A stretch of 64,000 nucleotides of DNA from Comamonadaceae bacterium (GTDB lineage: Bacteria > Pseudomonadota > Gammaproteobacteria > Burkholderiales > Burkholderiaceae_C), in contig JAUWAE010000001.1 of assembly GCA_030602185.1 (NCBI GenBank), positions 1,184-65,183 on the forward strand, in the 5' to 3' direction. Positions 39,305 through 63,054 of this stretch are shown piece after piece. The notes beneath the pieces were generated by a model, which saw only the letters and a list, made by a program, of their open reading frames with translations, did not search any database and had not been told where the DNA came from. The position numbers were made by a program, and so were the translations under genes. Each line of letters begins with the position of its first letter. The first letter of the stretch is position 1.

Positions 39305-41212
39305 ATGGCTCAGCCCGCGTCTCAGCCGCCCGACGAAGACGAACGACTGGCCCTGTTGCATGGGCTGCAGTTGCTCGACTCCCTGCCCGAACCCGCGTTT
39401 GACCGGATCACGCGCTTGGCCACGCGGCTGTTGGGCGTGCCAATGGCGCTGGTCAGTCTGGTCGATCGGGACCGTCAATGGTTCAAGTCGCGGGTGGGCT
39501 TGGCGGCCACCGAAACGCCGCGTGAGCAGGCGTTTTGCGCCCACGCCATCTTGCAGACCGGGCCCTTCGTGGTGACCGACGCCCTGGAAGACGCCCGTTT
39601 TGCCGATAACCCGCTGGTGACTGGGGCGCTGGGCTTGCGCTTTTATGCCGGCGTGCCGATCCGCACGGCCGGTGGGCTGGCGCTGGGGACCTTGTGTGCG
39701 CTTGACCAGCGCCCGCGTACCCTGTCAGCCGACGACCTGCAGACCCTGCAGGACCTGGCCGACATGGTCAGCCAGGAGGTGCAGCTGCGCGAGTCCCTGC
39801 TGGCCACGCAGCACCGGCTGGACGCGAGCGAGCGGCGTTTCCGGGCTGTTTTCGAGCTGGCGCCGGTGGGGGTGGCGCTGGTGGCGCCCGATGGTGGCTG
39901 GATCGGCACCAACGCCGCGCTCAGTGCCCTGCTGGGATACGACCGCGATGCCCTGCGCCGAGAAACCCTGACCGGTCTCACTTGGGTGGACGACCGCGCC
40001 GCCGAGGCCACGCTGCTGGAGGCGCTGCGCCAGCGCCAGGCAGAGCGTTACACCCTGGAAAAACGGTACGTCCACGCCAACGGTGAGCCGGTCTGGGTGC
40101 GGCAGAGCGTCTCGCTCAAGTTCAATGCGGCGGGGCAGCCCGAGTACTTCGTGGCCGTGTTGGAGGACATCGGCGCGCGCAAGGCGGCCGAGGCGCGGCT
40201 CGACGCGGCGATGCGCGAACTGGAGCAGCGGGTGGCCCAGCGCACCGACGAGCTGGTGCAGGCCAACGCCCGCCTGCAGGCCGCGCTGGAGCAGCAGGCC
40301 GCTTCGGCCCGTGCGCTGCGTCAGCGCGAGGCCGAACTGACGGCGGTGCTGGAACACGCCAACGACGCCTACATCTGCATGGACGAGTCCAGCATCATCA
40401 CCGTCTGGAACCTGCAGGCGGCCGAGGTGTTTGGCTGGACGGCGGCCGAGGCCATCGGGCGGCCCATGTACGAGCTCATCGTGCCGCCCGACATGCGGCA
40501 GGCGCACCGTGACGGCGTGCACCGCTACGTCGTCACGCGCCATTCGACGATGATGGACCGGCGGCTGGAACTGCCCGCGGTGCGCAAGGACGGTACGGTC
40601 ATCCTGCTGGAGCTTCGCATCCGTGCGCTCAACGTCGATGGGCGGCACCTGTTCAGCGCCTTCATGCACGACATTTCGGAGCGCAAGCGCGAAGAGAACC
40701 GGCGGCTGCAGGAAGCGCGGGTCGACCCGCTGACCGGCCTGTACAACCGGCGCGCCCTGGAAGAGATGCTGCCGCAGGCCATGGCCCGCGCCGACCGAGA
40801 CGACAAGCCGCTGGCGCTGCTGTTCATCGACCTGGACGGCTTCAAGGCCGTGAACGACAACCTGGGGCACGACGCTGGCGATGCCGTGCTGCGCGATGTG
40901 GCCGCCCGCTTGCGGGCCCATGTGCGCCAGACCGACACGCTGGTGCGGCTGGCCGGAGACGAGTTCACCGTGGTGCTGGAGCGCCTGCAGGGAGGCCTGC
41001 CCGCGGCGCGCCAGGTGGCGCAGAAACTGGTTGACCGACTGGCTCAACCATTTGAGCTGGACCTGGGCGTGGCCCGGATCGGCGCGAGCATCGGCGTGGC
41101 CATCTACCTGCCTGGCAGCGGGGAGTCGGCGGCCAGGCTCATCAAAACCGCGGACGGCTGGATGTACCAAGCCAAACGGGCCGGAAAAGGCTGTGTCTTG
41201 CCGTTAGAATAG
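39305..41212 (+). CDS. GAF-PAS-PAS-GGDEF diguanylate cyclase
   Basis: N-terminal GAF (ALVSLVDRDRQWFKSRVG...), two PAS domains, and a GGDEF domain with an AGDEF variant site (RLAGDEFTVV) and an RQTD I-site. It lies 12 nt after hrcA. Confidence 0.85.
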   Translation: MAQPASQPPDEDERLALLHGLQLLDSLPEPAFDRITRLATRLLGVPMALVSLVDRDRQWFKSRVGLAATETPREQAFCAHAILQTGPFVVTDALEDARFADNPLVTGALGLRFYAGVPIRTAGGLALGTLCALDQRPRTLSADDLQTLQDLADMVSQEVQLRESLLATQHRLDASERRFRAVFELAPVGVALVAPDGGWIGTNAALSALLGYDRDALRRETLTGLTWVDDRAAEATLLEALRQRQAERYTLEKRYVHANGEPVWVRQSVSLKFNAAGQPEYFVAVLEDIGARKAAEARLDAAMRELEQRVAQRTDELVQANARLQAALEQQAASARALRQREAELTAVLEHANDAYICMDESSIITVWNLQAAEVFGWTAAEAIGRPMYELIVPPDMRQAHRDGVHRYVVTRHSTMMDRRLELPAVRKDGTVILLELRIRALNVDGRHLFSAFMHDISERKREENRRLQEARVDPLTGLYNRRALEEMLPQAMARADRDDKPLALLFIDLDGFKAVNDNLGHDAGDAVLRDVAARLRAHVRQTDTLVRLAGDEFTVVLERLQGGLPAARQVAQKLVDRLAQPFELDLGVARIGASIGVAIYLPGSGESAARLIKTADGWMYQAKRAGKGCVLPLE

Positions 41213-51610: not shown

Positions 51611-52225
51611 ATGCCGATCGTCGTCGTTGCCAACCCCAAAGGCGGCGTGGGCAAGTCCACGCTGTCCACCAACATTGCCGGGTACTTCGCCCGGCAAGGC
51701 CACACCGTCATGCTGGGCGATGCCGACCGTCAGCAGTCCTCGGCCGTCTGGTTGCGGCAGCGGCCGCCCCAGGCGCGCCCGATCGTCACGTGGGACGCTT
51801 CGGCAGTGGATGTGCTGCGCCCGCCACGAGGCACCACCCACGTGGTGCTGGACACGCCAGCCGGCCTGCACGGTCGCCAACTCAAGGAAACCCTTAAGCG
51901 GGCCGACAAGCTGCTCATTCCTCTGCAGCCCAGCCTGTTTGACATGCAGGCCACCAAAGACTTTGTCGATGACCTGAAAGACCGCCGGCGCGCCGCCGAC
52001 CTGGACATCGCCGTGGTGGGCATGCGGGTGGACGAGCGCACCATCGCCGCCGAGCGCCTGCGCGCCTTTGTCGAAGAACTGGACCTGCCGGTACTCACCC
52101 ACCTGAGGGACACGCAAAACTACGTCCGCCTCGCCATGCAGGGGCTGACGCTGTTCGATGTGCTGCCCAGCCGCGTGGCCAAAGACCTGAAGGCGTGGGA
52201 GCCGATCACGGCCTGGCTGGACTGA
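51611..52225 (+). CDS. ParA/MinD-family ATPase (small, type Ib-like, orphan)
   Basis: Deviant Walker A VANPKGGVGKST, 204 aa with no N-terminal HTH. It lies 15 nt after the small ORF. Confidence 0.85.
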   Translation: MPIVVVANPKGGVGKSTLSTNIAGYFARQGHTVMLGDADRQQSSAVWLRQRPPQARPIVTWDASAVDVLRPPRGTTHVVLDTPAGLHGRQLKETLKRADKLLIPLQPSLFDMQATKDFVDDLKDRRRAADLDIAVVGMRVDERTIAAERLRAFVEELDLPVLTHLRDTQNYVRLAMQGLTLFDVLPSRVAKDLKAWEPITAWLD

Positions 52226-52235
52226 TCAATCTGGC

Positions 52236-52652
52236 TCAAAAAAGTGGTTTGAACATCGACAGCAACTCCAGGGCCACGCTGGGGTGTTTCGCCAGACTTT
52301 CAGCCACCAGGGGCGTGTTCATGTACTGGGAGTAGCCGGGCAGTTTGTGCACTTCGGGGTCAGACAGGTCACGAAACCCCATCGACCAGTCGTTAAAAAT
52401 TCGTCCTTCGGTGTCTTCCTCATCGATCACGATCGTGTTTTCATGCCTGGGGTCCTGTTTGATGTGTTCAAACAGGTCCTTCACCTGCTGGCGTTCGCCT
52501 TCAATCAGCTGCAGAAAATCGCCGTCCTTGTACAGCAACATGCCGGTCACATTCCGGCGCATGTTGTTACGCCTTGACGTATCCAGCAAATTCACCAGAT
52601 CGGTTTTGGAAAAAGGCACAGTGGCAGAGCTCACATAGACGAGTCGGTACAT
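52236..52652 (-). CDS. Short BLUF-domain blue-light flavin photoreceptor
   Basis: MYRLVYVSS..., SRRNNMRRNVTGMLLY, DFLQLIEG and NDWSMG match the BLUF Tyr/Asn/Gln/Trp-Met positions. It is 138 aa with no output domain. Confidence 0.85.
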   Translation of the reverse strand: MYRLVYVSSATVPFSKTDLVNLLDTSRRNNMRRNVTGMLLYKDGDFLQLIEGERQQVKDLFEHIKQDPRHENTIVIDEEDTEGRIFNDWSMGFRDLSDPEVHKLPGYSQYMNTPLVAESLAKHPSVALELLSMFKPLF

Positions 52653-52728
52653 GGCTTGAGATTGCGAAAAGCGTTAGAGAAAAATTGTCTGGCAATTATG
52701 CGTGCTTTGCCGCTTTGTTGCAGATACA

Positions 52729-53976
52729 TCAACCAGACGTGACGCGGTTCCTGCCGGTGCGCTTGGACTGGTAGAGCGCCTGGTCGCACCGGTGGATGAA
52801 GTCTTCCAGAGGCTCTTGCGGCTGCAAGGCTGCTACACCCAGCGACAGCGTCACCCGGCCCACCTGGGCGTCTTCGGCGCTTTCCACGCGCACCCGCATC
52901 AGCTCGGCCACTTCTTTGGCACGGGCCATGGTGCAGTCGCTCAGCACCACCAGAAACTCTTCACCACCCCAGCGCACCACCGGGTCGCTGGCACGCACCG
53001 CGCCGCGCAGCACCTGCGTCACCTGGCGAATCACCCGGTCGCCGGCGGGGTGGCCAAAGCTGTCGTTGATCGATTTGAAGTGGTCGATGTCGCACATGAT
53101 CAACGCCAGGGGGGCCCCGCTGGCCACGGCTGCTGCGTACCGTTCGCTCAGCGAGCGTTCGCCCTGGTGGCGGTTGAACAGGCCGGTCAAGCGGTCGAGC
53201 GTGGCAGCCTGTAGCAGGTCGCGCTCTTTCTTTACCCGGCTGGTCACGTCACGGCCCACGCTCACGTAGTGCGTCACTCGGCCCGATTCGTCGCGCAGCG
53301 GCGAGATGTTCTGTTCAAAGTGAAACAGCGTGCCATCGCGCCTTCGGTTGATGAAGATCGCCTTGAAATCCCGGCCGCTTTGCAGCTCTTGTCGCAACAC
53401 GTCATAAAAGTCTTCGCCATGCTCGCCCGAGCGCAGCATGGCGGGGGTTTGGCCCAGCAGTTCATTGACGCTGTAACCCGTCACGTTCGCAAAGGCCTGG
53501 TTCGCAAACACGATGTGGGCCGTGGCATCGGTCAGCAGCACCGGGTCGCTGGCCGAATCCAGTGCTTTGGCCAGCAGGCGCCCGCGCTGTTCTGACAGCA
53601 CGTAATCGGTCATGTCGTGCTGCACCGAAACGAAGTGGGTGATCTGGCCGTGGTCGTCGCGCACCGGCGAAATGTTCCAGCGCACCACATAGGGCGTCCC
53701 GTCCTTGCGGTAGTTGGTGGCCGTACCTTCAAAGTAGTGGCCATCACTCAGGCAGGTTCGCATTCGGGCCAGCACCTGCGGGTCGGTGTCGGGCCCTTGC
53801 AGCATCTTGAGCGAGCGCCCTTGCAACTCTTCCAGCGTGTAGCCTGTCATGCGAGAGAACGCCGGATTGGCGGTGAGCACGGGATAGCCCGCAGCCGCGT
53901 CGGCCGAGGTAATTACCACCGCGTTCCAGGCCTGCATGATGGCCATGCGCAAAACGGCCAAATCTGAATGGGTCAT
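52729..53976 (-). CDS. PAS(LOV-like, Cys-less)-PAS-GGDEF diguanylate cyclase
   Basis: ORF 52729-54399 trimmed to ATG 53976 (alternative 53994). PAS1 reads GRSLKMLQGPDTD...NYRKDGTPYVVRWNISP...VSVQHDMT. It has a GGEEF site with an RASD I-site. Confidence 0.8.
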   Translation of the reverse strand: MTHSDLAVLRMAIMQAWNAVVITSADAAAGYPVLTANPAFSRMTGYTLEELQGRSLKMLQGPDTDPQVLARMRTCLSDGHYFEGTATNYRKDGTPYVVRWNISPVRDDHGQITHFVSVQHDMTDYVLSEQRGRLLAKALDSASDPVLLTDATAHIVFANQAFANVTGYSVNELLGQTPAMLRSGEHGEDFYDVLRQELQSGRDFKAIFINRRRDGTLFHFEQNISPLRDESGRVTHYVSVGRDVTSRVKKERDLLQAATLDRLTGLFNRHQGERSLSERYAAAVASGAPLALIMCDIDHFKSINDSFGHPAGDRVIRQVTQVLRGAVRASDPVVRWGGEEFLVVLSDCTMARAKEVAELMRVRVESAEDAQVGRVTLSLGVAALQPQEPLEDFIHRCDQALYQSKRTGRNRVTSG

Positions 53977-54228
53977 TTGTGAATTTATACCCATTTGGCG
54001 TGCGGGCGCAAACCGGTAGGGGTACGGTATTTTTTGGCTAAACAACGCTTCGGACCATACTCCAAAAGAAGTAGTCTGTACATGTGAAAGGGTGGTTGTA
54101 TCCTGTTGGTTGATTTGGGCTGGACCGGCTGGGAGGCTTTCAGGAGGTTGGCCTTGTTGGCTGATGAAAAATCGACCGTAACGCGCCGGGCGCCAGCAGC
54201 GATGCGCCACAATGACAGACACTACCGT

Positions 54229-55982
54229 ATGACCACTCACGATTCCTCGAGTGCGCTCCAAGTTTGGGCGTTGCAGCTGACCAACGTGCCCATGATGGCT
54301 GTGGGCGTTGATGGCCTCATCACCGACGTGAACGAAGCGGTGTTGCGGCACAGTGGCTTGCCCCGGGAACACTGGGTGGGGCGTATCTTTGGGAGCCACT
54401 TTGAAAACCCCGAGGCCGCGCAGAAGCTATTCGACCGCACGCTGGCCACTGGGCACTCGGTCAACCAGCTGGTTCATGTGCGCACCCAGCACGGGCAGCA
54501 GGTGGAGTTGGATCTGACATTGACCGCGTTCCGTGGTGTGAATGGTCAGGTCCAAGGGCTGTTTGTGGAGGCGCGTAACGTCACCGGCGCGCGTGCGGCC
54601 GAGCTCAAACTTGAGGCTGCCTCACGCTACGCCAGAAGCCTGCTGGAAGCCAGCCTCGATCCGCTGGTCACCATCAGTACCGAGGGCAAGATCATGGATG
54701 TCAACCGCGCCACCGAGCTGGCCACCGGTTGGCCGCGTGAGGCTTTGATTGGCAGCGACTTTTCCGAATACTTCACCGAGCCCCAGAGGGCGAGGGAGGG
54801 GTATCAGCAGGTCTTCTCACAAGGTTCCGTCATGGACTATGCACTGGTGATGCGCCACAGGTCGGGCAGCATCAAAGAAGTGCTTTACAACGCCAGTGTG
54901 TACCGAGATGAGAAAGGGCAGGTGGCAGGGGTGTTTGCCGCTGCCAGAGACATTACGGCGCTGAAGCGTTTCCAGCGAGAGCTCGAGAGCACGAACCGCG
55001 AGGTGGTGCTGTTGGGCGAAATGACGGGTCTGTTGCAGAGCTGCCGTACCGTCCAAGAGGCGTTGCCCATCATCACTTTGACGATGTCGCAACTCTTCCC
55101 TGAAGCCAGCGGGCAGTTGATGTTGCTCAACCCAGCGACGAACTGGCTTGAAGATGCTGGTACCTGGGGGCGGCACAGGCACCGTTTGCATTCACTGCCC
55201 CCTTCGGAATGTTGGGCCTTGCGCAGAGGTCATGTGCACGAGGTGGGTTTCGGCCCCAGCATCAATCCGCCCTGCGTGCAGGTGAAATGCAAAAACAAGC
55301 CGTATTTGTGCATGCCTTTGCTGGCCCAAGGCAGCAATTTGGGAATCATTCAGCTGGTAATAGATCCACTGCGGGCAGACCAAGCCCGACTGACCCATGC
55401 TAGGCACCTCGCTGCCACAGCGGCCGACAGCGTCAGCCTAGCCTTGGCCAATTTGCAGCTCAGAGAGTCCTTGCAAGCTGCATCCATCCACGACCACCTG
55501 ACCGGTTTATACAACCGCGGGTACATGGAGGAAGCGCTTGCCAGAGAAATCAGCCGAATGGAGCGTGACCACAAACCGTTGACGGTGGCAATGCTGGATC
55601 TGGATCATTTTAAGCAGTTCAACGATCGCTACGGTCACGAAGCTGGTGATGCCGTGCTGCGGGCGTTCGCTCAGTTGTTGTCTGGTTTTCGCGAAGGCAG
55701 TGACCTGGCATGCAGGTATGGGGGCGAAGAATTCCTCCTCATCTTGCCAGATTTGCACCCTGACAAGGCGGTGGACCGGCTGGACGCGCTACGGCTGGCG
55801 GTGGCCGCTCTTCGTGTGGAATACCAAGGCAAGGCGTTGCCTCCTCTGACGGTGTCGGTGGGCTTGGCCTCTGCACCACACACACCGTTAACGGCAGCGA
55901 ACTGGTCAGCAAGGCGGACGAGGCCTTGTACTTGGCCAAGAACCAAGGGCGCAACCGAGTGGTGATGGCAACCAGTACCTAA
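54229..55982 (+). pseudogene. PAS-PAS-GAF-GGDEF diguanylate cyclase with a frame break in the last ~35 codons
   Basis: ATG 54229 (alternative 54202). GGEEF is intact. After SVGLASAPHT, the annotated frame gives a nonsense tail ending at 55965. The shifted frame from 55887 reads VNGSELVSKADEALYLAKNQGRNRVVMATST* (stop 55980-55982). Confidence 0.8.
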
Positions 55983-56038
55983 GGGCAACCAGCACCTAGG
56001 CCATGGTCCAACCCGCTTGACCCACCACACACCGCACC

Positions 56039-56914
56039 ATGCCACATTCATTTTTGGACAGCTTGCTGGCGGCCATACCTGGTCGCTGGGAGAAGGTCAT
56101 CGTCACGCTGCTGCTGATTGCGGTGGCGCTGTTGCTTTCGCACATGTGGGCGCGCTACCTAGCGCGGGGTGAAATTTCGTCGGAAAAGCGGCGCATGCAC
56201 CTGGTATGGGCCCGCAATGTGATCTGGTTTGTGGTGGTGCTGGTCATTGTGTCGGTCTGGGCCTCCACGATTGCCGGGTTTGCGCTTTCGCTGGCGGCGG
56301 TGGCGGGTGCGATGCTGATCGTCAGCAAGGAGCTCATCATGTGCGTGCAGGGCTACCTGTATGCCACGCTGGTGCAGCCATTCAAGGTGGGCGACATCGT
56401 GGAGTTCAACCAGTTGCGGGGGCGGGTGATCGATATCGACATGTTCGCCACCACGCTGGCCGAGCTCGATGCCTCGGGCCGGCTCACTGGCAAGGTGGCC
56501 GAATTCCCGAACGGGCTGCTGCTGACCACCCCTTTGAAGAACATATCGCCCACGGGTGACTTTGCGCTGCACTTCATACGCATCCCCATGCCCGAGAAAT
56601 GGCCGCACGGCTTGGATCTGGATGCCCTGGAACAGGCGGCCATGGCGGCGGCCGAGCGGGCTACCAGCCCCTGGCAGGAGGAAGCTAGCACCCACTTCCG
56701 CAAGCTCTCGCAGGAAAGCTTCATTCCGTTCCCATCGGGGCGCAGCAAAGTATCGTGGGACTTTTCAGATCCCAAGCACCTGGTGCTGGTGGTGCGGGTG
56801 GCCTGCCCTTCACGGGAACGTACCCAGGTGGAGCAGCAGGTGTTCAAGGACACCTGGAAGGCCCTGGATGTGGCCAACCAGATGCCAGCAGAAAGTAAAA
56901 AGCCCGCTGTGTGA
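56039..56914 (+). CDS. MscS-family mechanosensitive channel-like protein
   Basis: Three N-terminal TM helices, then the beta-domain motif QPFKVGDIVEFNQLRGRVIDIDMFATTL. Confidence 0.75.
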   Translation: MPHSFLDSLLAAIPGRWEKVIVTLLLIAVALLLSHMWARYLARGEISSEKRRMHLVWARNVIWFVVVLVIVSVWASTIAGFALSLAAVAGAMLIVSKELIMCVQGYLYATLVQPFKVGDIVEFNQLRGRVIDIDMFATTLAELDASGRLTGKVAEFPNGLLLTTPLKNISPTGDFALHFIRIPMPEKWPHGLDLDALEQAAMAAAERATSPWQEEASTHFRKLSQESFIPFPSGRSKVSWDFSDPKHLVLVVRVACPSRERTQVEQQVFKDTWKALDVANQMPAESKKPAV

Positions 56915-56934
56915 GTGGCACAGAGGGCTTTTTC
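56897..56934 (+). terminator. Rho-independent terminator overlapping the MscS-like stop codon
   Basis: Stem agcccgctgtg / cacagagggct (one mismatch), loop tgagtgg containing the TGA stop, then TTTT. Confidence 0.7.
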
Positions 56935-57138
56935 GTATCAAAAAAAACTATTCAGCAGCCTCCCAGCTGCTATTGATGCTTGGCGTGGATAAAAACCAAG
57001 AATCGCTCATCTTGTTCCGACCTGAATGGCGGCCAAAATGGCAATAATAATTAAATAAAACGTTAAAAACTTTATGTGTGACTGCAAACTTGGCAACTAC
57101 ACCTTTTGGCCGATTCGTTCAAGGCTGCGGGTGTGTTT

Positions 57139-57720
57139 TCAGAAGGGGCGGCGCTTGATCCTTCGCTCTACCGCCGATGCCGCGTAGAGGAACAGCAGGG
57201 TGCCAATCAGGTCACCGATCAACATGGGCAGGAACGAGGCTGCCCAGCGGTGGTCTGCCGACGTTTGATGGAAGTAGGCGTTGTGAGCAACGGCACTCAA
57301 GGTGGCGCAAATGGCGGCGACGTACAAAAGATCTTTGATGCTCAAGCCGGCCAGATCGCTCTGAATGCGCAGCAGGCGTCTGGCCACCAGCACACCGACC
57401 AGCGGCGACGACGCTGAAAGGGCTGCAAGCACCAGGGACTCGAGCATGTTGTGACCCAGATGCGGATAGTTGGTAAAAAAGGCGCCCAGAAAAAGGCCCA
57501 ACGCCCCACGCCACCCCAACAACAGAACAGCGACGACGCGAAGCGCTGCAGGCAGAAAAACCCAGTTGGCAAAGGGGCTGGATTCGAAGTAGGCAAAAAG
57601 CCAACGGTTCACTTCGAACAGCAGAACCCAGAGGACGACGACCGCCGATACTTCTACGGTCTGTGTTTTGAGCCGTTCTCGGGCCTGTTCCACGAAGTCT
57701 CCCTGGCTTGTTCTAGGCAC
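57139..57720 (-). CDS. Polytopic membrane protein, possibly MASE1-like sensor module
   Basis: GTG start at 57720. About 5 TM segments, with the motif WVFLPAALRVVAVLLLGWRGALGLFLGAFFTN. It overlaps the upstream wHTH ORF by 67 nt in another frame. Confidence 0.45.
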   Translation of the reverse strand: MPRTSQGDFVEQARERLKTQTVEVSAVVVLWVLLFEVNRWLFAYFESSPFANWVFLPAALRVVAVLLLGWRGALGLFLGAFFTNYPHLGHNMLESLVLAALSASSPLVGVLVARRLLRIQSDLAGLSIKDLLYVAAICATLSAVAHNAYFHQTSADHRWAASFLPMLIGDLIGTLLFLYAASAVERRIKRRPF

Positions 57721-58046
57721 TGGCCAAGCCTGTCGAAATATTCTTCGGCAGCTTTGGTGGGAACGATGTATTTGACCCGATGGTCGTGCTCACTGGATAC
57801 GAACGAGAGCATGCCCTTGCTGTGCAAGGTTTTGATCCGCCGAAAGGCGGTGCGCTCAGGCGTGCCCTGTTCCATCCTGGTCACTTCCGTGACCTGCAGT
57901 TGTTTGCCCGACTCCCAGGCTGACAGCAGCAACCCCAGCAGGCGCTCCTCCACAGTGTCAAGCACAGGTAGGCTGGGCATCTGGCGCACAGCACTGAGCA
58001 AGTTCAAAAACTTGGCGTAGGTGCTGGCGTGCTTGGTGACTGACAT
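57654..58046 (-). CDS. Winged-helix (MarR-like) DNA-binding protein
   Basis: 130 aa. LQVTEVTRMEQGTPERTAFRRIKTLHSKGMLSFVSSEHDHRVKYIVPT fits an HTH-wing pattern. The C-terminal ~20 codons overlap the next ORF. Confidence 0.5.
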   Translation of the reverse strand: MSVTKHASTYAKFLNLLSAVRQMPSLPVLDTVEERLLGLLLSAWESGKQLQVTEVTRMEQGTPERTAFRRIKTLHSKGMLSFVSSEHDHRVKYIVPTKAAEEYFDRLGQCLEQARETSWNRPENGSKHRP

Positions 58047-58196
58047 GCCGCAATCTTATGTCATGTCTCAATGTCTTGGCCTGGCGCTGCCATTGCGCTG
58101 GAGGCGGCCGCCAAGAGCAATGAAGCAAAAGCCTGCACCGCAACCCCCAGTACCAAAAGTGTCAGCAGCCACATTGCCGTTCATCCCTGAGTCTTT

Positions 58197-58769
58197 TCAA
58201 ACGGTCTTTTGGTCTGCGTTCCCCATCCGTACCGTCACCTTGAGTCTTGAAAGCCGGCGCAGCAGGCGGATGCGTGCTGCCACAGGCCACCAGTCGTATA
58301 GAAAGATTTCCATCGGCCGCCACATGGCAACCCAACCGCCAATGACGATACTCTGCTGAAGAATCTGCATGGCGTGAAGTCCGGCGCCGGAATCGCTGCC
58401 CAGCCATTGGCTCACTCCAATGGATGCAGACAGGAAGGCCAGCCCGATGAGCAGGCTGGTGCGCCCTCGTTTGAAGAGGTCTTTCAGCTGTGCCTGCGTT
58501 GACTGCGCTGAAGCCTCGAAATGTGCGCGTATCGCCTGTTCAACCAGGCCCAACTTTGCAAGATTGCCGGGTGGTTGATCAAGATGAATGAGCAATTCCA
58601 GGGCAGCGTTTTTGGGCAGCTCTTTGGCGTATTTGACAATGTAGTCGTCTGCGTCAGCATCCAGATCCCTGCTGTGGAATGGGGAGGGATCGATCGCGTT
58701 GAACAACTGGTCGATATGTGTGACGTGCACCTCGACGCACTGCGTGGGTAGATCCTCTGGGTTCGGCAT
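58197..58769 (-). CDS. Hypothetical protein with a soluble N-domain and two C-terminal TM helices
   Basis: 190 aa with coding-like composition. It contains FNAIDPSPFHSRDLDADADDYIVKYAKELP. I can name no family. Confidence 0.5.
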   Translation of the reverse strand: MPNPEDLPTQCVEVHVTHIDQLFNAIDPSPFHSRDLDADADDYIVKYAKELPKNAALELLIHLDQPPGNLAKLGLVEQAIRAHFEASAQSTQAQLKDLFKRGRTSLLIGLAFLSASIGVSQWLGSDSGAGLHAMQILQQSIVIGGWVAMWRPMEIFLYDWWPVAARIRLLRRLSRLKVTVRMGNADQKTV

Positions 58770-59002
58770 TGCCTCAGGATAACTCGCCCAGAGGTGCAGC
58801 AGTTTCGATGCGATTGCCCGATGTGGATGGTTACTGCATCGAAGAGCACATTAACCCTAGACCACAAACGCCGTCATCACCCGACCCGCACTGACCAAGT
58901 AGCCATGCTGAAAGCTGCTCAATCTTGGGAAATGTTCAGCCCTGCAGACGGCAACACGGCTGTGACTGATTCGTAAAACCAGACGTATAACGCGAGGGTG
59001 GA

Positions 59003-59036
59003 AAATAAAAAATCCTAATTGGATCAACCACTTAGG
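59003..59036 (-). terminator. Rho-independent terminator after tRNA-Ser
   Basis: The minus strand reads cctaagtgg-ttgat-ccaattagg (9-bp stem, one mismatch), followed by ATTTTTTATTTT. Confidence 0.7.
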
Positions 59037-59044
59037 CTTGTATC

Positions 59045-59132
59045 TGGCGGAAGCGGTGAGATTCGAACTCACGAACGGTTGCCCGTTGCCGGTTTTCAAG
59101 ACCGGTGCAATCGACCACTCTGCCACGCTTCC
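59045..59132 (-). tRNA. tRNA-Ser (anticodon TGA)
   Basis: Minus strand: GGAAGCGTGGCAGAGTGGTCGATTGCA-CCGGT-CTTGAAA-ACCGG-long variable arm-GTGAGTTCGAATCTCACCGCTTCCGCCA. Confidence 0.95.
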
Positions 59133-59318: not shown

Positions 59319-60050
59319 ATGGATACAGCAACTCTTGACAGGGGGCCGCAGGCGGCCCGTGTGCACGGATGGGCCACAGCGTGGCAAGACGAACCCGATA
59401 CCTGCGCTGAAAGAGCGGACAGGACGGTGGAGTACCTGCCATTTCGGGTACGCCGGGTGGTCACCCGAAGCGATCTGGCGCAGGCGGTGGCGGTGCGGAG
59501 TTTGGCCTATGGCCGGCACCTGCCGCCGGCGCTGACCAAGGCACTGCGGACGCCTGAAAAGGCCGATACGCAGCCTGGCACCGTCATTCTGCTGGCCGAA
59601 TCCAAGCTCGACGGCTCTGCTTTGGGCACCATGCGAATACAAACCAATGCGGTCAGCCCGCTGGGTATGGAGCAGTCCATCCGGCTACCTGACTGGATGG
59701 CGGGACATCATCTGGCCGAAACCACGCGCCTTGCGGTGGCCGGAGACCGCAGCGGCCATCTGGTCAGGCTGGCTTTGGTCAAGGCGGGCTACCAGTTTTG
59801 TGTCATGCAGGGTATCCGTTACATGGTCATCACTGCCCGCGCACCAGTGGACCGGCAATACGAACGCCTGCTTTTCCAGGATGTGTTCCCTGGAATGGGG
59901 TACATGCCGCTGGAGCACGTCTTCAACTTGCCGCACCGGGTGATGTGTTTTGATGTGGAGCAGGGCGAAGCACTTTGGACACGCCACAATCACCCACTGT
60001 TGCACTTTTTCACCCGCACTCAACACCCTGACATCTGCTTGAACGGTTGA
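59319..60050 (+). CDS. GNAT-fold acyltransferase-like protein (possibly FeeM/OlsB-type N-acyl amino acid synthase family)
   Basis: 243 aa with SD GGAGGG. The pattern ...ESKLDGSALGTMRIQTN...ETTRLAV...GIRYMVITARAPVDRQYERLLFQDVF...HRVMCFDVEQ resembles that family, but this is recognition by eye only. Confidence 0.35.
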   Translation: MDTATLDRGPQAARVHGWATAWQDEPDTCAERADRTVEYLPFRVRRVVTRSDLAQAVAVRSLAYGRHLPPALTKALRTPEKADTQPGTVILLAESKLDGSALGTMRIQTNAVSPLGMEQSIRLPDWMAGHHLAETTRLAVAGDRSGHLVRLALVKAGYQFCVMQGIRYMVITARAPVDRQYERLLFQDVFPGMGYMPLEHVFNLPHRVMCFDVEQGEALWTRHNHPLLHFFTRTQHPDICLNG

Positions 60051-60060
60051 GCCAGTCCCT

Positions 60061-63054
60061 TCAGGGTTGTGATGCCGTGCCGGCGCCGGCGCTGGGGATG
60101 GAGTCGGTACCCAGCACCCAGTCCACGCCTTCCAGTTCGCCTTCGGTGGGTTTCAGGTCGCTGAGGTAGTGGTTGAGTGCATCGTCGCGGATGAAGTCCG
60201 CAGCCGATGTGGCACCCAGGATGTCGTGAGGTGCTTGTGGCCGTGCGACCACGAAGCCTTGAACGTAATCCACCCCGATTTCGGCCAGAGTTTGCACGGT
60301 TTCCGCATCTTCTGCCCATTCGGCAATCGTTTTCATGCCCAGGTTTTGCGCCAGACTCACAATCGCCTCCACGATCGCGACGTTGGCGGGGTGGCGGTTC
60401 ATGTTGACAATGAAGCTGCCGTCGATCTTGAGCAGGTCGGCCGGCAGTTCCTTCAGGTAAGAAAACGAGGTGTAGCCGGCACCGAAATCGTCCAGCGCGA
60501 TGCGGGCACCGAAACCGCGGACCCTGTCAATGAAGCGGCGGGTGTTGCCCATGTCGTGCAAGGCCACACTTTCGGTGATTTCCAGACACAACCGCCGAGA
60601 CACCGGCCCGGCGGTTTGCAGCTGATCGTATACAAATTGGACGAACCGCTCGTCGTTGAGCGAGGCCCCGCTGAGGTTGACGCAGACGAAGTGATTGGCC
60701 TCCATGCGCGATTGATGCTGCTGCAGCCAGCTTAAGGTGGTGGTGAGGACCCAGCGGTCGATGGCGCTCATGCGGCCGGCATGCTCGCCTGCGTTGATGA
60801 GCCGCTCGGTCGGCACCCGGCCGCCGGTGGCGTCTTGCATGCGCAACAGCACCTCGAAATTGAGCGACGCATACGGGTTGCGCAGCGACAGAATGGGTTG
60901 CATTTCCAGGAACAGGCCGTCGATCGACTGCCCCGTGGCCAAGCGTTCGACCAGCTGCAGTTCGGCTTCGTTCTCGCTGAAAACCCGGGAAGCCTTGTCA
61001 TATACCTGCAGGCTGGAACTCCGGCCTTTTTTGGCCTCGCGGCAGGCGCGGTCTGCAGTTGACACCACTTCTTTGGGCCCCAGGTCTGGGTGCACCTCGA
61101 TGAGCCCGATGGATACTCGCACCTGAAATGCGCGTTCACCAACGGAGTAGGGTTCGTTGCCCAGTGCCGTGACTATGCTGCGGCACACGGCCTCGGCTTG
61201 AGGCAGCGGTGTACCTGGCATCACCAGCAGAAACTCGTCGCCACCGACCCGGCCCACCACCATCTGCCCGCTGAGCCGCTGGACGATCCGCCCGCAGACC
61301 TGTCGCAGGACCTCGTCTCCGGCGTTGTGGCCGTAGAGGTCGTTGATCAATTTGAACCGGTCGAGGTCGAGGTAAGCCACCGCCAGCGGTTGCCCGCTGC
61401 GAAGGTGCCGCAGGGCTTCGTCCAGGGCCAGTTCGGTGCCACGCCGGTTCAATACCGTGGTGAGCGGGTCGTGGTTGGCGAGGAATTCCAGCCGGGTTTT
61501 TGCCCTTACCGTGGTGCTGATGTCCTGGAGGGACCCCTCCACCTTGCCTTTGGACCAGGTGGCTTTGACCAAAAAATGACGCGGGTCTTGCCCGTGCTGC
61601 CCGCCATCGGTCACTTCCAGTTCGGCACCGCCTTCCGCCCGAGCGGCTTCGGCCAGCTGCTCCCATGGCCCGCGGCCAAAGCGGGCTGGCCAGCTGTCCG
61701 ATCCCGGCGCCTGCACTTCCGGGCCCAGCATGTCGACCAGTGCCGGGTTGGCCCCGAGGAAGCGGCCGTCTTCGTTCAAGGTGAACAGCCCAATGGGAAT
61801 CACGTCGAAGGTATGCTGCAGCTCGGCCTGCATCTGCAGTTTTTCGGCGTGTTCCTCGCGCATGCGCTCTGCCACGGCCAGTGCCGTGAGCACCGACGAG
61901 GCGAGTGCGGCGGTCACGCTGTTCACCGACCCGATCAGCACCGTCAAACCCAGTGCCGCAGCGGCCACCTCATAGACGTTGGCCAACAGCGCCACGCCGA
62001 TTGAGGCGGCGTACCACAAGGCCACCCGTGACTGGGTGGCCATGAGTATCTGGGCCAGCAGGAAGATGTAGATCAGCACGCCCACCGTGGTGGCGGCCCA
62101 GACGATTGGCAGGAAGTCTTCGTAGGAGAGAAGGACCGACAGCAACAGGATCGGCAGGGTGCTGAGCTGGACGGCGTTGATCAGGCCAGCGCGCCCCAGT
62201 CGCTCCAGCTGATCGATGAACAGCTGACGAAAGAGGACGATGGTCACGGAGTAATACAGCGCGATGGTGATGGGCCGTAAATGTTGCAACACGACCTGCG
62301 GTACCGTATGACCCAGCCACTGCTGGTCCCAGCCTGCGGACAGCGCAGCCATGCGCAGGTTGAGCAGCAGCCAGCTTGCAAACAGCAAGTAATGGTGGTC
62401 TCGGTTGAGCAGTCCGGCGATCAGGATGAATGCGGCCAGCACCAGCATGCCCCCGTCGAGCAGGCCAGCGTTGCGGTGGAACTCCCGGTTGGCGATCGCC
62501 AGTTCGGCGGGCTCCCACTGCTCGACCGAAAAACGGGCCGGCCCGCGAAAGGCGATCTGGCAGATCACTGACCGAACCGATTTGTCAAGCGCCAGTGCAA
62601 ACCCCCCACGAGAGACGGACATGGCGCCCTCGACCTGGTCTCGCCCTGCACTGCCGAGCCAGTGGCCATCGGTCGTGTTCCAGCATTGCATCTCGGTCGC
62701 ATGTCGAGATGGGAACTCCAGCACCGTTGCGGTGCTGCGCCATTCGGGCTCGACTTGTACCCATACCGGTTCGGTGGACAACTCGGATTGCCACAGCGTG
62801 GATGGCGGCGCGTCGCGCAAGGCCGCTGCAGCGTCGGTCAGCATCCATTCGGGCGCGCTCTGTGGTACCAGCCGGAACGGCTGCTGACTGTCGGGGTCGG
62901 CCGCGTATTGACTGGGCAGCAGCGTTAGTGTGAGTACAGAAAACAGCGCAATCAGCGCAGGCAACCACCCGGTCGAGAGGTTGCGCAACCAGGCGTCTAT
63001 GCGGGTGTGCAGGGCGCCGAGTCTAGACATCGGGGTGCCCCGAGGGGTGTGCAT
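60061..63054 (-). CDS. 7TM-receptor (7TMR-DISM-like) PAS-GGDEF-EAL c-di-GMP signalling protein
   Basis: 997 aa (alternative start 63030). It has an N-terminal TM, a periplasmic domain of about 170 aa, 7 TM helices, a PAS domain, GGDEF (RVGGDEFLLVM) and EAL (EVLLRMQD ... DDFGAGYTSFSYL). Confidence 0.85.
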   Translation of the reverse strand: MHTPRGTPMSRLGALHTRIDAWLRNLSTGWLPALIALFSVLTLTLLPSQYAADPDSQQPFRLVPQSAPEWMLTDAAAALRDAPPSTLWQSELSTEPVWVQVEPEWRSTATVLEFPSRHATEMQCWNTTDGHWLGSAGRDQVEGAMSVSRGGFALALDKSVRSVICQIAFRGPARFSVEQWEPAELAIANREFHRNAGLLDGGMLVLAAFILIAGLLNRDHHYLLFASWLLLNLRMAALSAGWDQQWLGHTVPQVVLQHLRPITIALYYSVTIVLFRQLFIDQLERLGRAGLINAVQLSTLPILLLSVLLSYEDFLPIVWAATTVGVLIYIFLLAQILMATQSRVALWYAASIGVALLANVYEVAAAALGLTVLIGSVNSVTAALASSVLTALAVAERMREEHAEKLQMQAELQHTFDVIPIGLFTLNEDGRFLGANPALVDMLGPEVQAPGSDSWPARFGRGPWEQLAEAARAEGGAELEVTDGGQHGQDPRHFLVKATWSKGKVEGSLQDISTTVRAKTRLEFLANHDPLTTVLNRRGTELALDEALRHLRSGQPLAVAYLDLDRFKLINDLYGHNAGDEVLRQVCGRIVQRLSGQMVVGRVGGDEFLLVMPGTPLPQAEAVCRSIVTALGNEPYSVGERAFQVRVSIGLIEVHPDLGPKEVVSTADRACREAKKGRSSSLQVYDKASRVFSENEAELQLVERLATGQSIDGLFLEMQPILSLRNPYASLNFEVLLRMQDATGGRVPTERLINAGEHAGRMSAIDRWVLTTTLSWLQQHQSRMEANHFVCVNLSGASLNDERFVQFVYDQLQTAGPVSRRLCLEITESVALHDMGNTRRFIDRVRGFGARIALDDFGAGYTSFSYLKELPADLLKIDGSFIVNMNRHPANVAIVEAIVSLAQNLGMKTIAEWAEDAETVQTLAEIGVDYVQGFVVARPQAPHDILGATSAADFIRDDALNHYLSDLKPTEGELEGVDWVLGTDSIPSAGAGTASQP

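Follow-up and report, generated by a model that had tools for sequence, protein, structure and literature searches.

A 64,000-nucleotide stretch of a Comamonadaceae genome (assembly GCA_030602185.1, contig JAUWAE010000001.1, positions 1,184 to 65,183 of the forward strand), referred to below as the window, encodes a stand-alone photoreceptor of the BLUF family directly downstream of a diguanylate cyclase. The BLUF gene (52236..52652, minus strand) and the cyclase gene, here termed DGC1 (52729..53976, minus strand), are separated by an A/T-rich spacer of 76 nucleotides (nt) that runs on the same strand from the cyclase stop codon to the BLUF start codon (52653..52728). A first-pass annotation, made from the sequence alone, had read the pair as a two-protein, possibly dual-flavin, blue-light switch on the synthesis of cyclic di-GMP (c-di-GMP). 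The domain calls behind that proposal are correct, as confirmed with profile hidden Markov models (HMMs) for BLUF, PAS and GGDEF. For the switch itself no support was found beyond the adjacency of the two genes. Each protein is of a known kind, and only their pairing would be new.

The BLUF gene and the adjacent cyclase

The BLUF gene encodes a protein of 138 amino acids (aa). Its open reading frame (ORF) matches the Pfam family PF04940 over the entire profile (positions 1-92 of 92, E=6.3e-32, 110 bits with a cutoff of 25). BLUF is the sole Pfam family above its curated cutoff in this ORF, which carries no output domain; a match to TEX47 reaches 17.8 bits and stays under the 25-bit cutoff of that family. 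The photocycle residues named in the first-pass annotation are all in place, namely Tyr6 (MYRLVY), Asn29 and Asn30 (RRNN), Gln48 (DFLQLIE), and Trp89 and Met91 (NDWSMG). In an alignment they match the photocycle positions of TePixD and PixD, where the PixD counterparts of the tested residues are Y8, N31/32, Q50, W91 and M93. Tyr6, Asn30, Gln48, Trp89 and Met91 are unchanged across 29 aligned BLUF homologues. The nearest homologue is 74% identical, and the ORF in the window is not truncated relative to it.

An AlphaFold2 (AF2) model of the protein (pLDDT 83) consists of a beta-alpha-beta-beta-alpha-beta-beta core followed by short C-terminal helices. The top structure retrieved with Foldseek is TePixD (1x0p), which aligns over the full length (142 columns, TM-score 0.80) and is also the best match by sequence (E=5.6e-19). 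The short BLUF proteins PixD and TePixD (Slr1694 and Tll0078), of which PixD works with PixE, and BlrB share with the protein studied here the size of about 140 aa, the core and the two-helix C-terminal cap. Identity to these proteins is only about 30-39%, and the last 45 residues of the present family form a conserved motif of their own, FRDLSDPEV..PG[FY]S..MNTPLVAE. Profile match and predicted fold both identify the product of this ORF as a bona fide short BLUF protein of the PixD/BlrB type. As there is no output domain, signalling must use a partner protein. By analogy with characterised BLUF proteins, flavin adenine dinucleotide (FAD) would be bound between Tyr6, Gln48 and Met91 and would undergo a hydrogen-bond switch in blue light. 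The change would then pass via strand beta-5 and the C-terminal helices to the partner.

The cyclase DGC1 comprises 415 aa when read from the ATG at 53976, with two PAS domains and a GGDEF domain assigned by Pfam. This start (MTHSDLAVLR) agrees better than the others with where the orthologues begin, while gene callers chose 53946 or 53994. The GGDEF domain (52744..53205, minus strand) covers profile positions 1-161 of 161 (E=1.2e-43), and no EAL domain was found in DGC1 with Pfam. Both GGDEF-domain features described in the first-pass annotation are present: RASD occupies residues 334-337 and GGEEF residues 343-347 (RASD-PVVRW-GGEEF), which is the canonical five-residue spacing of an inhibitory site (I-site). 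Arg334, Asp337 and the string RWGGEEF are invariant across 21 aligned members of the DGC1 family. A protein search yielded more than 100 full-length relatives of about 416 aa and 54-68% identity, from Ralstonia, Cupriavidus, Burkholderia multivorans, Acidovorax, Achromobacter and many metagenomes. DGC1 is thus predicted to be a catalytically competent, product-inhibited cyclase of a widespread family.

The first PAS domain (PAS1, 53605..53922, minus strand) is LOV-derived. The highest-ranking PDB matches (best E=6e-26) are without exception LOV domains, as are nearly all of the top 60. The earlier description of PAS1 as a LOV-type domain without the adduct-forming cysteine holds in so far as the PDB matches and the residue at the Cys position are concerned. 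In the motif GRSLKMLQGPDTD, Leu is found where LOV domains have the adduct Cys, and the LOV string NCRFLQ corresponds to SLKMLQ (within GRSLKMLQ) in an ungapped alignment. The strings NYRKDG, WNISP and VSVQHD, which had been listed as retained, are indeed present in DGC1. WNISP, however, is not a LOV motif: the Asn of the LOV string 'FWN' aligns with Val in PAS1 ('pfwNdl' versus 'pyvVrw', with an invariant Trp two residues on), so that WNISP lies three residues out of register. All 21 aligned family members have this Leu in place of the Cys (motif SL[KR]xLQG), and the loss of the Cys is therefore ancestral to the DGC1 family and not a local event. Leu62, Gln66, Asn94, Trp106 and Gln125 of PAS1 are likewise invariant in the family.

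In the customary numbering of AsLOV2, the classical flavin contacts include N449, R451, Q454, R467, N482, N492 and Q513. PAS1 keeps four of eight such contacts, the equivalents of Gln454, Arg467, Asn482 and Gln513, which are invariant or nearly so. The other four are changed: N449 to Ser, the adduct Cys to Leu, R451 to Lys (Lys, Arg, Gln or Ser within the family) and N492, the second flavin-binding Asn, to Val. Judged from these residues, PAS1 might still bind a flavin, though this is uncertain, and photochemistry of the LOV type is ruled out. Signalling by photoreduction of a flavin, as suggested in the first-pass annotation, is doubtful, because only half of the classical contacts are kept; the Leu, moreover, is ancestral in the family.

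The second PAS domain (PAS2, 53209..53547, minus strand) resembles the MmoS/NifL type, a class of FAD-containing redox sensors. The top PDB match is MmoS (3ewk, whole-sequence E=9.7e-32), with the best-scoring stretch in its FAD-binding PAS-A domain. NifL (2gj3, PAS1 of NifL) follows lower in the list (E=2.3e-16). PAS2 has the motif SG-x-HG in common with MmoS, NRR[KR]D is a further shared motif, and Ser189, Gly190 and His192 of PAS2 are invariant in the DGC1 family. In the alignment with NifL, by contrast, NifL Glu70 faces Pro and NifL Trp87 faces Phe. With two PAS domains of flavin-binding classes, DGC1 is most likely a redox or oxygen sensor. This is the simpler function for DGC1, since PAS2 resembles redox sensors.

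Flavin-PAS cyclases that sense redox state are known, namely AxDGC2 and CdgF, and the Cys-less LOV-like domain PASd of RmcA has been implicated in a light response (PMC8846402). The same PAS classes as in DGC1 are found in AxDGC2 (FAD-PAS), RmcA PASd, LadC (LOV-GGDEF, 8c05), MmoS and NifL. As in flavin-PAS enzymes of c-di-GMP metabolism, the PAS domains of DGC1 lie N-terminal to the GGDEF domain and are joined to it by a helical linker. PAS1 differs in having neither the Cys nor the second Asn, and any cofactor of the DGC1 family is putative. DGC1 belongs to a large Burkholderiales cyclase family that stably combines a Cys-less, LOV-derived PAS domain with a MmoS/NifL-like one.

Base composition and genomic context in other genomes

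As stated in the first-pass annotation, the BLUF gene is the most A/T-rich ORF: with 52.3% G+C and a G+C fraction at third codon positions (GC3) of 0.68, it has the lowest G+C of 17 genes measured. The hand count given there for 52381-52440 (27 of 60) is exact. DGC1 has 63.7% G+C and a GC3 of 0.81, and seven of eight core genes upstream have 67-72% G+C and a GC3 of 0.83-0.88; the core genes as a whole range from 66 to 72% with a GC3 near 0.85. The BLUF gene lies about 16 G+C points under the core of the window, compared with a mean of 3.5 and a maximum of 10 points under the flanks for homologous BLUF genes in 80 other genomes. The closest BLUF homologues (74% and 70% identity) are found in loci of 49-51% G+C (L087, L088, L008). 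A further homologue of 66% identity (P0019, L096:1299-4417) adjoins genes for an insertion sequence transposase (rve) and a phage-type integrase, which supports mobility of the BLUF gene. The P0019 gene is located 64 nt upstream of a gene for a dCache-HAMP-PAS4 histidine kinase.

Recent horizontal acquisition of the BLUF gene in the window, as the first-pass annotation had suggested, is supported by this composition. The donor of the gene, and probably of its A/T-rich 76-nt leader, would have been a member of the Burkholderiales with a G+C content near 50%. The gene would have inserted at the border of an accessory segment of lower G+C (52.2-59 kb) with many c-di-GMP genes. A recent acquisition weighs against a long co-evolved pair of BLUF and DGC1.

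The 76-nt spacer has a G+C content of 43%. No riboswitch or other Rfam family was matched in it, and no convincing sigma-70 promoter was found on its minus strand; a CATAAT hexamer was spotted by eye, and a good -35 element is absent. Alignments of the regions upstream of the closest BLUF homologues revealed no convincing conserved leader or promoter, and conservation in the aligned downstream regions was not convincing either. The A/T-rich spacer could nevertheless be the seat of a promoter of the BLUF gene's own.

The arrangement of BLUF and DGC1 was found on six other contigs, all of which are identical to the window over 1759 nt. The arrangement therefore represents one clone, and the identical copies provide no measure of selection on BLUF within the species. 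To the BLUF side, one genome per species was scanned, which resulted in 80 loci with BLUF genes of 42-70% identity; domains of neighbouring genes were called with HMMs built from Pfam-verified seeds. The hosts include Proteobacteria, Acidobacteriota, Verrucomicrobiota, Nitrospira, Rubrobacter and others. Kinase, response-regulator or chemoreceptor genes neighbour the BLUF gene at about 14 of the 80 loci, and about 60 loci are without any. The commonest signalling neighbours are response-regulator and kinase genes.

Genes for c-di-GMP enzymes are found at most two genes away from BLUF at four of the 80 loci (L007, L014, L067, L050). Across the 80 representative genomes and seven close relatives, a GGDEF-containing neighbour is present only at L007 and L067, each of another architecture than DGC1. 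The closest genome-resolved BLUF homologue (70% identity) is that of L007, from a metagenome-assembled genome (MAG) of the Burkholderiaceae (JAYSGB010000043.1, 1-7588). Here the BLUF gene is placed between genes for a c-di-GMP phosphodiesterase and a cyclase; the latter is a multi-pass membrane protein with a GGEEF motif. The same locus encodes a hybrid histidine kinase of 1609 aa with periplasmic-binding, PAS and Hpt domains. In the cultured betaproteobacterium Macromonas nakdongensis BK-30 (L014:5118-6417), the gene for a stand-alone EAL protein of 286 aa ends 20 nt upstream of BLUF on the same strand, an arrangement that resembles papA and papB. L067 has a PAS-GGDEF-EAL gene upstream of BLUF, and L050 a REC-EAL gene two genes upstream. 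In a Methylococcaceae MAG (L032), a short BLUF gene belonging to the present family is located 3.7 kb from a gene for a larger fusion protein with a BLUF domain.

The first-pass annotation had named absence of the adjacency from related genomes as evidence against the switch, and indeed neither the closest BLUF homologues nor the DGC1 orthologues examined show it. No GGDEF cyclase was found beside BLUF at P0002, P0013, P0017, P0023 or the Zwartia locus L008 (70% identity). At P0002 (74% identity) a convergent gene for an OmpR-type regulator adjoins BLUF; at P0013 (67%), P0017 and P0023 no signalling neighbour was found. Conversely, no BLUF gene occurs within 3-8 kb of the cyclase gene at six loci of three DGC1 orthologues, P0132 (64% identity), P0136 (62%) and P0147 (58%), and an HMM scan for domains at the orthologue loci detected no BLUF. 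A background set on the cyclase side, 80 metagenome GGDEF loci, likewise contains no BLUF gene within 3 kb (0 of 80). These loci encode ordinary GGDEF proteins of at most 47% identity rather than orthologues, because the back-translated patterns used in the scan (RWGGEEF) were too generic to recover the latter. No recurrent link between the two families was found among the examined loci, and the DGC1 family operates without BLUF at every other locus examined.

The orthologue P0147 is encoded in Vibrio cholerae (L099:6297-14773; GCA_007595205.1, LVDF01000010.1). It is 57-58% identical to DGC1 over the full length and keeps the PAS-PAS-GGDEF layout and the motif SLKMLQG, but no BLUF gene is present within 8 kb. 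Its location in a conjugative-element region implies that the DGC1 family also moves horizontally. The neighbouring genes encode an EAL protein, a REC-GGDEF protein, a CHASE-PAS hybrid kinase, and TraF and TraH. This locus is probably the dgcK/dgcL cargo of an SXT/R391 element. DgcK has been reported to carry flavin mononucleotide (FMN), a point that would speak for light sensing by the cyclase itself.

Judged by its distribution, the BLUF family behaves like a mobile module, one frequently taken up into signalling operons. Its presence in many phyla, its horizontal movement and its signalling neighbours fit a plug-in module of 138 aa for light input.

Possible partners of the BLUF protein

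On a modest balance of probability, BLUF and DGC1 are functionally independent and BLUF acts on other partners. Two ordinary signalling genes would have been brought together recently, and their adjacency would mark the place where BLUF landed. More likely than control of DGC1, by analogy, is an action of BLUF on unlinked partners (one or several) in the manner of BlsA, or on two-component proteins, as PixD does on PixE. BlsA of Acinetobacter baumannii is a short BLUF protein with several unlinked partners and is gained and lost between strains (PMC9948694). It serves as the model for independence of the two genes, with transcription factors and BipA as its partners, and is distant in sequence from the BLUF protein of the window (PDB 6w6z, E=2.8e-8). 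The response-regulator and kinase neighbours of the BLUF family recall the response-regulator-like PixE; unlike in the PixD-PixE system, no PixE-like gene adjoins BLUF in the window. A chance adjacency to a cyclase gene arises easily here, because within 10 kb the accessory segment and its flank contain three GGDEF genes. That two genes adjoin each other in one clonal genome says little about whether they work together.

Several observations weigh against independence. In three of the best-studied BLUF systems that are short or depend on a partner, PapB-PapA, PixD-PixE and YcgF-YcgE, the partner is encoded next door. DGC1 and BLUF are on the same strand with only 76 nt from the DGC1 stop codon to BLUF, no terminator-like site was found on the minus strand of this spacer, and its predicted RNA fold is weaker than that of shuffled sequence (z=+1.45). 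Given the common strand and a spacer without terminator or structure, co-transcription of the two genes is plausible. Across the BLUF family, signalling genes are about three-fold enriched next to BLUF (18 of 154 adjacent slots versus 24 of about 562 distant slots, Fisher p=0.0015), and 13 of these 18 adjacent genes are on the same strand as BLUF. At L007, an apparent operon runs from the hybrid kinase gene via genes for REC-HD-GYP and BLUF to the membrane GGDEF gene, with gaps of at most 17 nt. Finally, the Methylococcaceae fusion protein (L032:1-2295, JBNLCC010000056.1) joins PAS, GGDEF, EAL and BLUF (residues 628-718) in one chain.

DGC1 is the leading single candidate partner, and a dedicated photoswitch is the main alternative, one that we regard as rather unlikely. 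BLUF would be co-transcribed with DGC1, bind it and change c-di-GMP synthesis in blue light, probably through contact of the BLUF C-terminal helices with the PAS dimer or the coiled-coil linker of DGC1. Besides the unstructured, terminator-free spacer, the enrichment of signalling neighbours and the fusion protein just described, this is favoured by the intact BLUF domain with its conserved C-terminal cap and by the independent BLUF/c-di-GMP enzyme neighbours at L007, L014, L067 and L050. It is disfavoured by the origin of the arrangement from one clonal sequence and by the absence of the pair from the closest BLUF homologues and the DGC1 orthologues examined. The third codon positions of the two genes differ as well (GC3 0.68 versus 0.81), and a pair of such different composition has not long evolved together. 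The enrichment is not significant for c-di-GMP genes alone (4 of 154 versus 6 of 562, p=0.23). Moreover, the other c-di-GMP proteins linked to BLUF mostly carry EAL or HD-GYP domains, so that a phosphodiesterase could be the target elsewhere. Lastly, no Shine-Dalgarno sequence is evident ahead of BLUF, and the spacer could hold a promoter of its own. DGC1 might instead itself be the light sensor, through photoreduction of PAS1 as proposed for PASd of RmcA, with BLUF unrelated or redundant. The LOV matches of PAS1, the four flavin contacts kept in the family and the precedent of a Cys-less LOV-type domain in RmcA (PMC8846402) speak for this idea. The four changed contacts, the resemblance of PAS2 to redox sensors and the frequency of the family in non-phototrophic soil, water and clinical Burkholderiales make a light-responsive PAS1 improbable; it would be compatible with the other readings. 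BLUF could also be a silent or decaying passenger that has no current function in the host. Its foreign base composition and the lack of a recognisable ribosome-binding site or promoter would fit, and the frameshifted and truncated genes nearby (see below) indicate that the segment tolerates gene decay. The gene is, however, full length, untruncated at 74% identity to its nearest homologue and intact at every family-invariant residue, and the passenger explanation is very improbable.

Among the systems described, PapB-PapA of Rhodopseudomonas palustris resembles the locus in that a stand-alone BLUF gene lies beside a gene for a c-di-GMP enzyme. Its proposed logic is light-dependent regulation in trans via the BLUF C-terminal helices (PMC8846402). 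In the window, BLUF adjoins a PAS-PAS-GGDEF cyclase and not an EAL protein, and the pair is not conserved. In a census from 2022 that covers the sensory inputs of c-di-GMP enzymes, short photoreceptors act on EAL proteins only (PapB-PapA), and BLUF domains are called rare among GGDEF and EAL proteins (PMC8846402). Cyclases known to respond to light do so by way of LOV domains, phytochromes or cyanobacteriochromes, or through kinase relays. No partnership of a BLUF protein with a cyclase was found in the literature searched, where the c-di-GMP enzymes under control of short BLUF proteins are EAL proteins only, in agreement with the first-pass annotation. If the photoswitch were true, it would be the first stand-alone BLUF partner that controls a diguanylate cyclase and would extend the short-BLUF model from c-di-GMP breakdown to synthesis. 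A cyclase family would then have come under the control of light by the horizontal gain of just one accessory gene, and the flavin-type PAS domains of DGC1 might add a redox input and create a two-signal gate. Such a pair would also provide a natural two-component optogenetic handle on a cyclase.

The surrounding segment

The BLUF gene is located at one end of the lower-G+C segment (52200-59132, about 6.9 kb), which has 58-60% G+C from 52.2 to 59.0 kb. Before 52 kb, all but two 2-kb windows have 66-72%. The drop from about 68% to about 58% coincides with the stop codon of a gene for a ParA-family ATPase (51611..52225, plus strand; Pfam CbiA/ParA) at the edge of the high-G+C core. The parA and BLUF genes are transcribed towards each other, and their stop codons are 10 nt apart. 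Homology to a related contig (L095), whose ParA is at least 90% identical, also ends at the parA stop codon. L095 was considered as the pre-insertion state and rejected: it shares only a module of parA and an unknown gene (73% DNA identity) and is different on either side of this module.

At the far end of the segment, ARAGORN predicted a gene for tRNA-Ser(UGA) (59045..59132, minus strand). A tRNA-linked integrative island spanning 52.2-59 kb was not adopted: the tRNA-Ser gene lies at the far end, but searches of the segment for a repeated tRNA 3' end, for other direct repeats at its flanks and for an integrase gave nothing. Apart from BLUF, the segment contains two GGDEF genes, an MscS-like gene, a fragment of a MASE1 gene and two ORFs that match no Pfam family.

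The second GGDEF gene of the segment, DGC2 (54154..55965, plus strand), also has the PAS-PAS-GGDEF architecture and is divergent from DGC1. In the window its GGDEF match stops at profile position 135 of 161 (Pfam). The C-terminus is frameshifted both here (55880-55965) and in contig L004, with the end ...RTRPCTWPRTKGATEW. The intact form ending in ...ADEALYLAKNQGRNRV (...ADEALYLAKNQGRNRVVMATST) is in frame in L001, L003 and L005 from an otherwise identical population. The frameshift may be a genuine polymorphism that inactivates the gene, or else an error of assembly or sequencing that recurs. Further along, an ORF of 184-193 aa (57139-57720, minus strand) matches only the start of MASE1 (profile positions 20-176 of 299), carries no output domain and overlaps a 130-aa ORF without a Pfam match. 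A signalling protein with a MASE1 domain was probably truncated here, leaving this ORF as its remnant.

Just past the tRNA-Ser gene, a FeeM-like N-acyl amino acid synthase (59319-60050, plus strand) and a 7TMR-DISM GGDEF-EAL protein of 997 aa (60061-63054, minus strand) are encoded. A further, fourth GGDEF gene is found at 39305-41212, and the neighbourhood is unusually dense in c-di-GMP genes.

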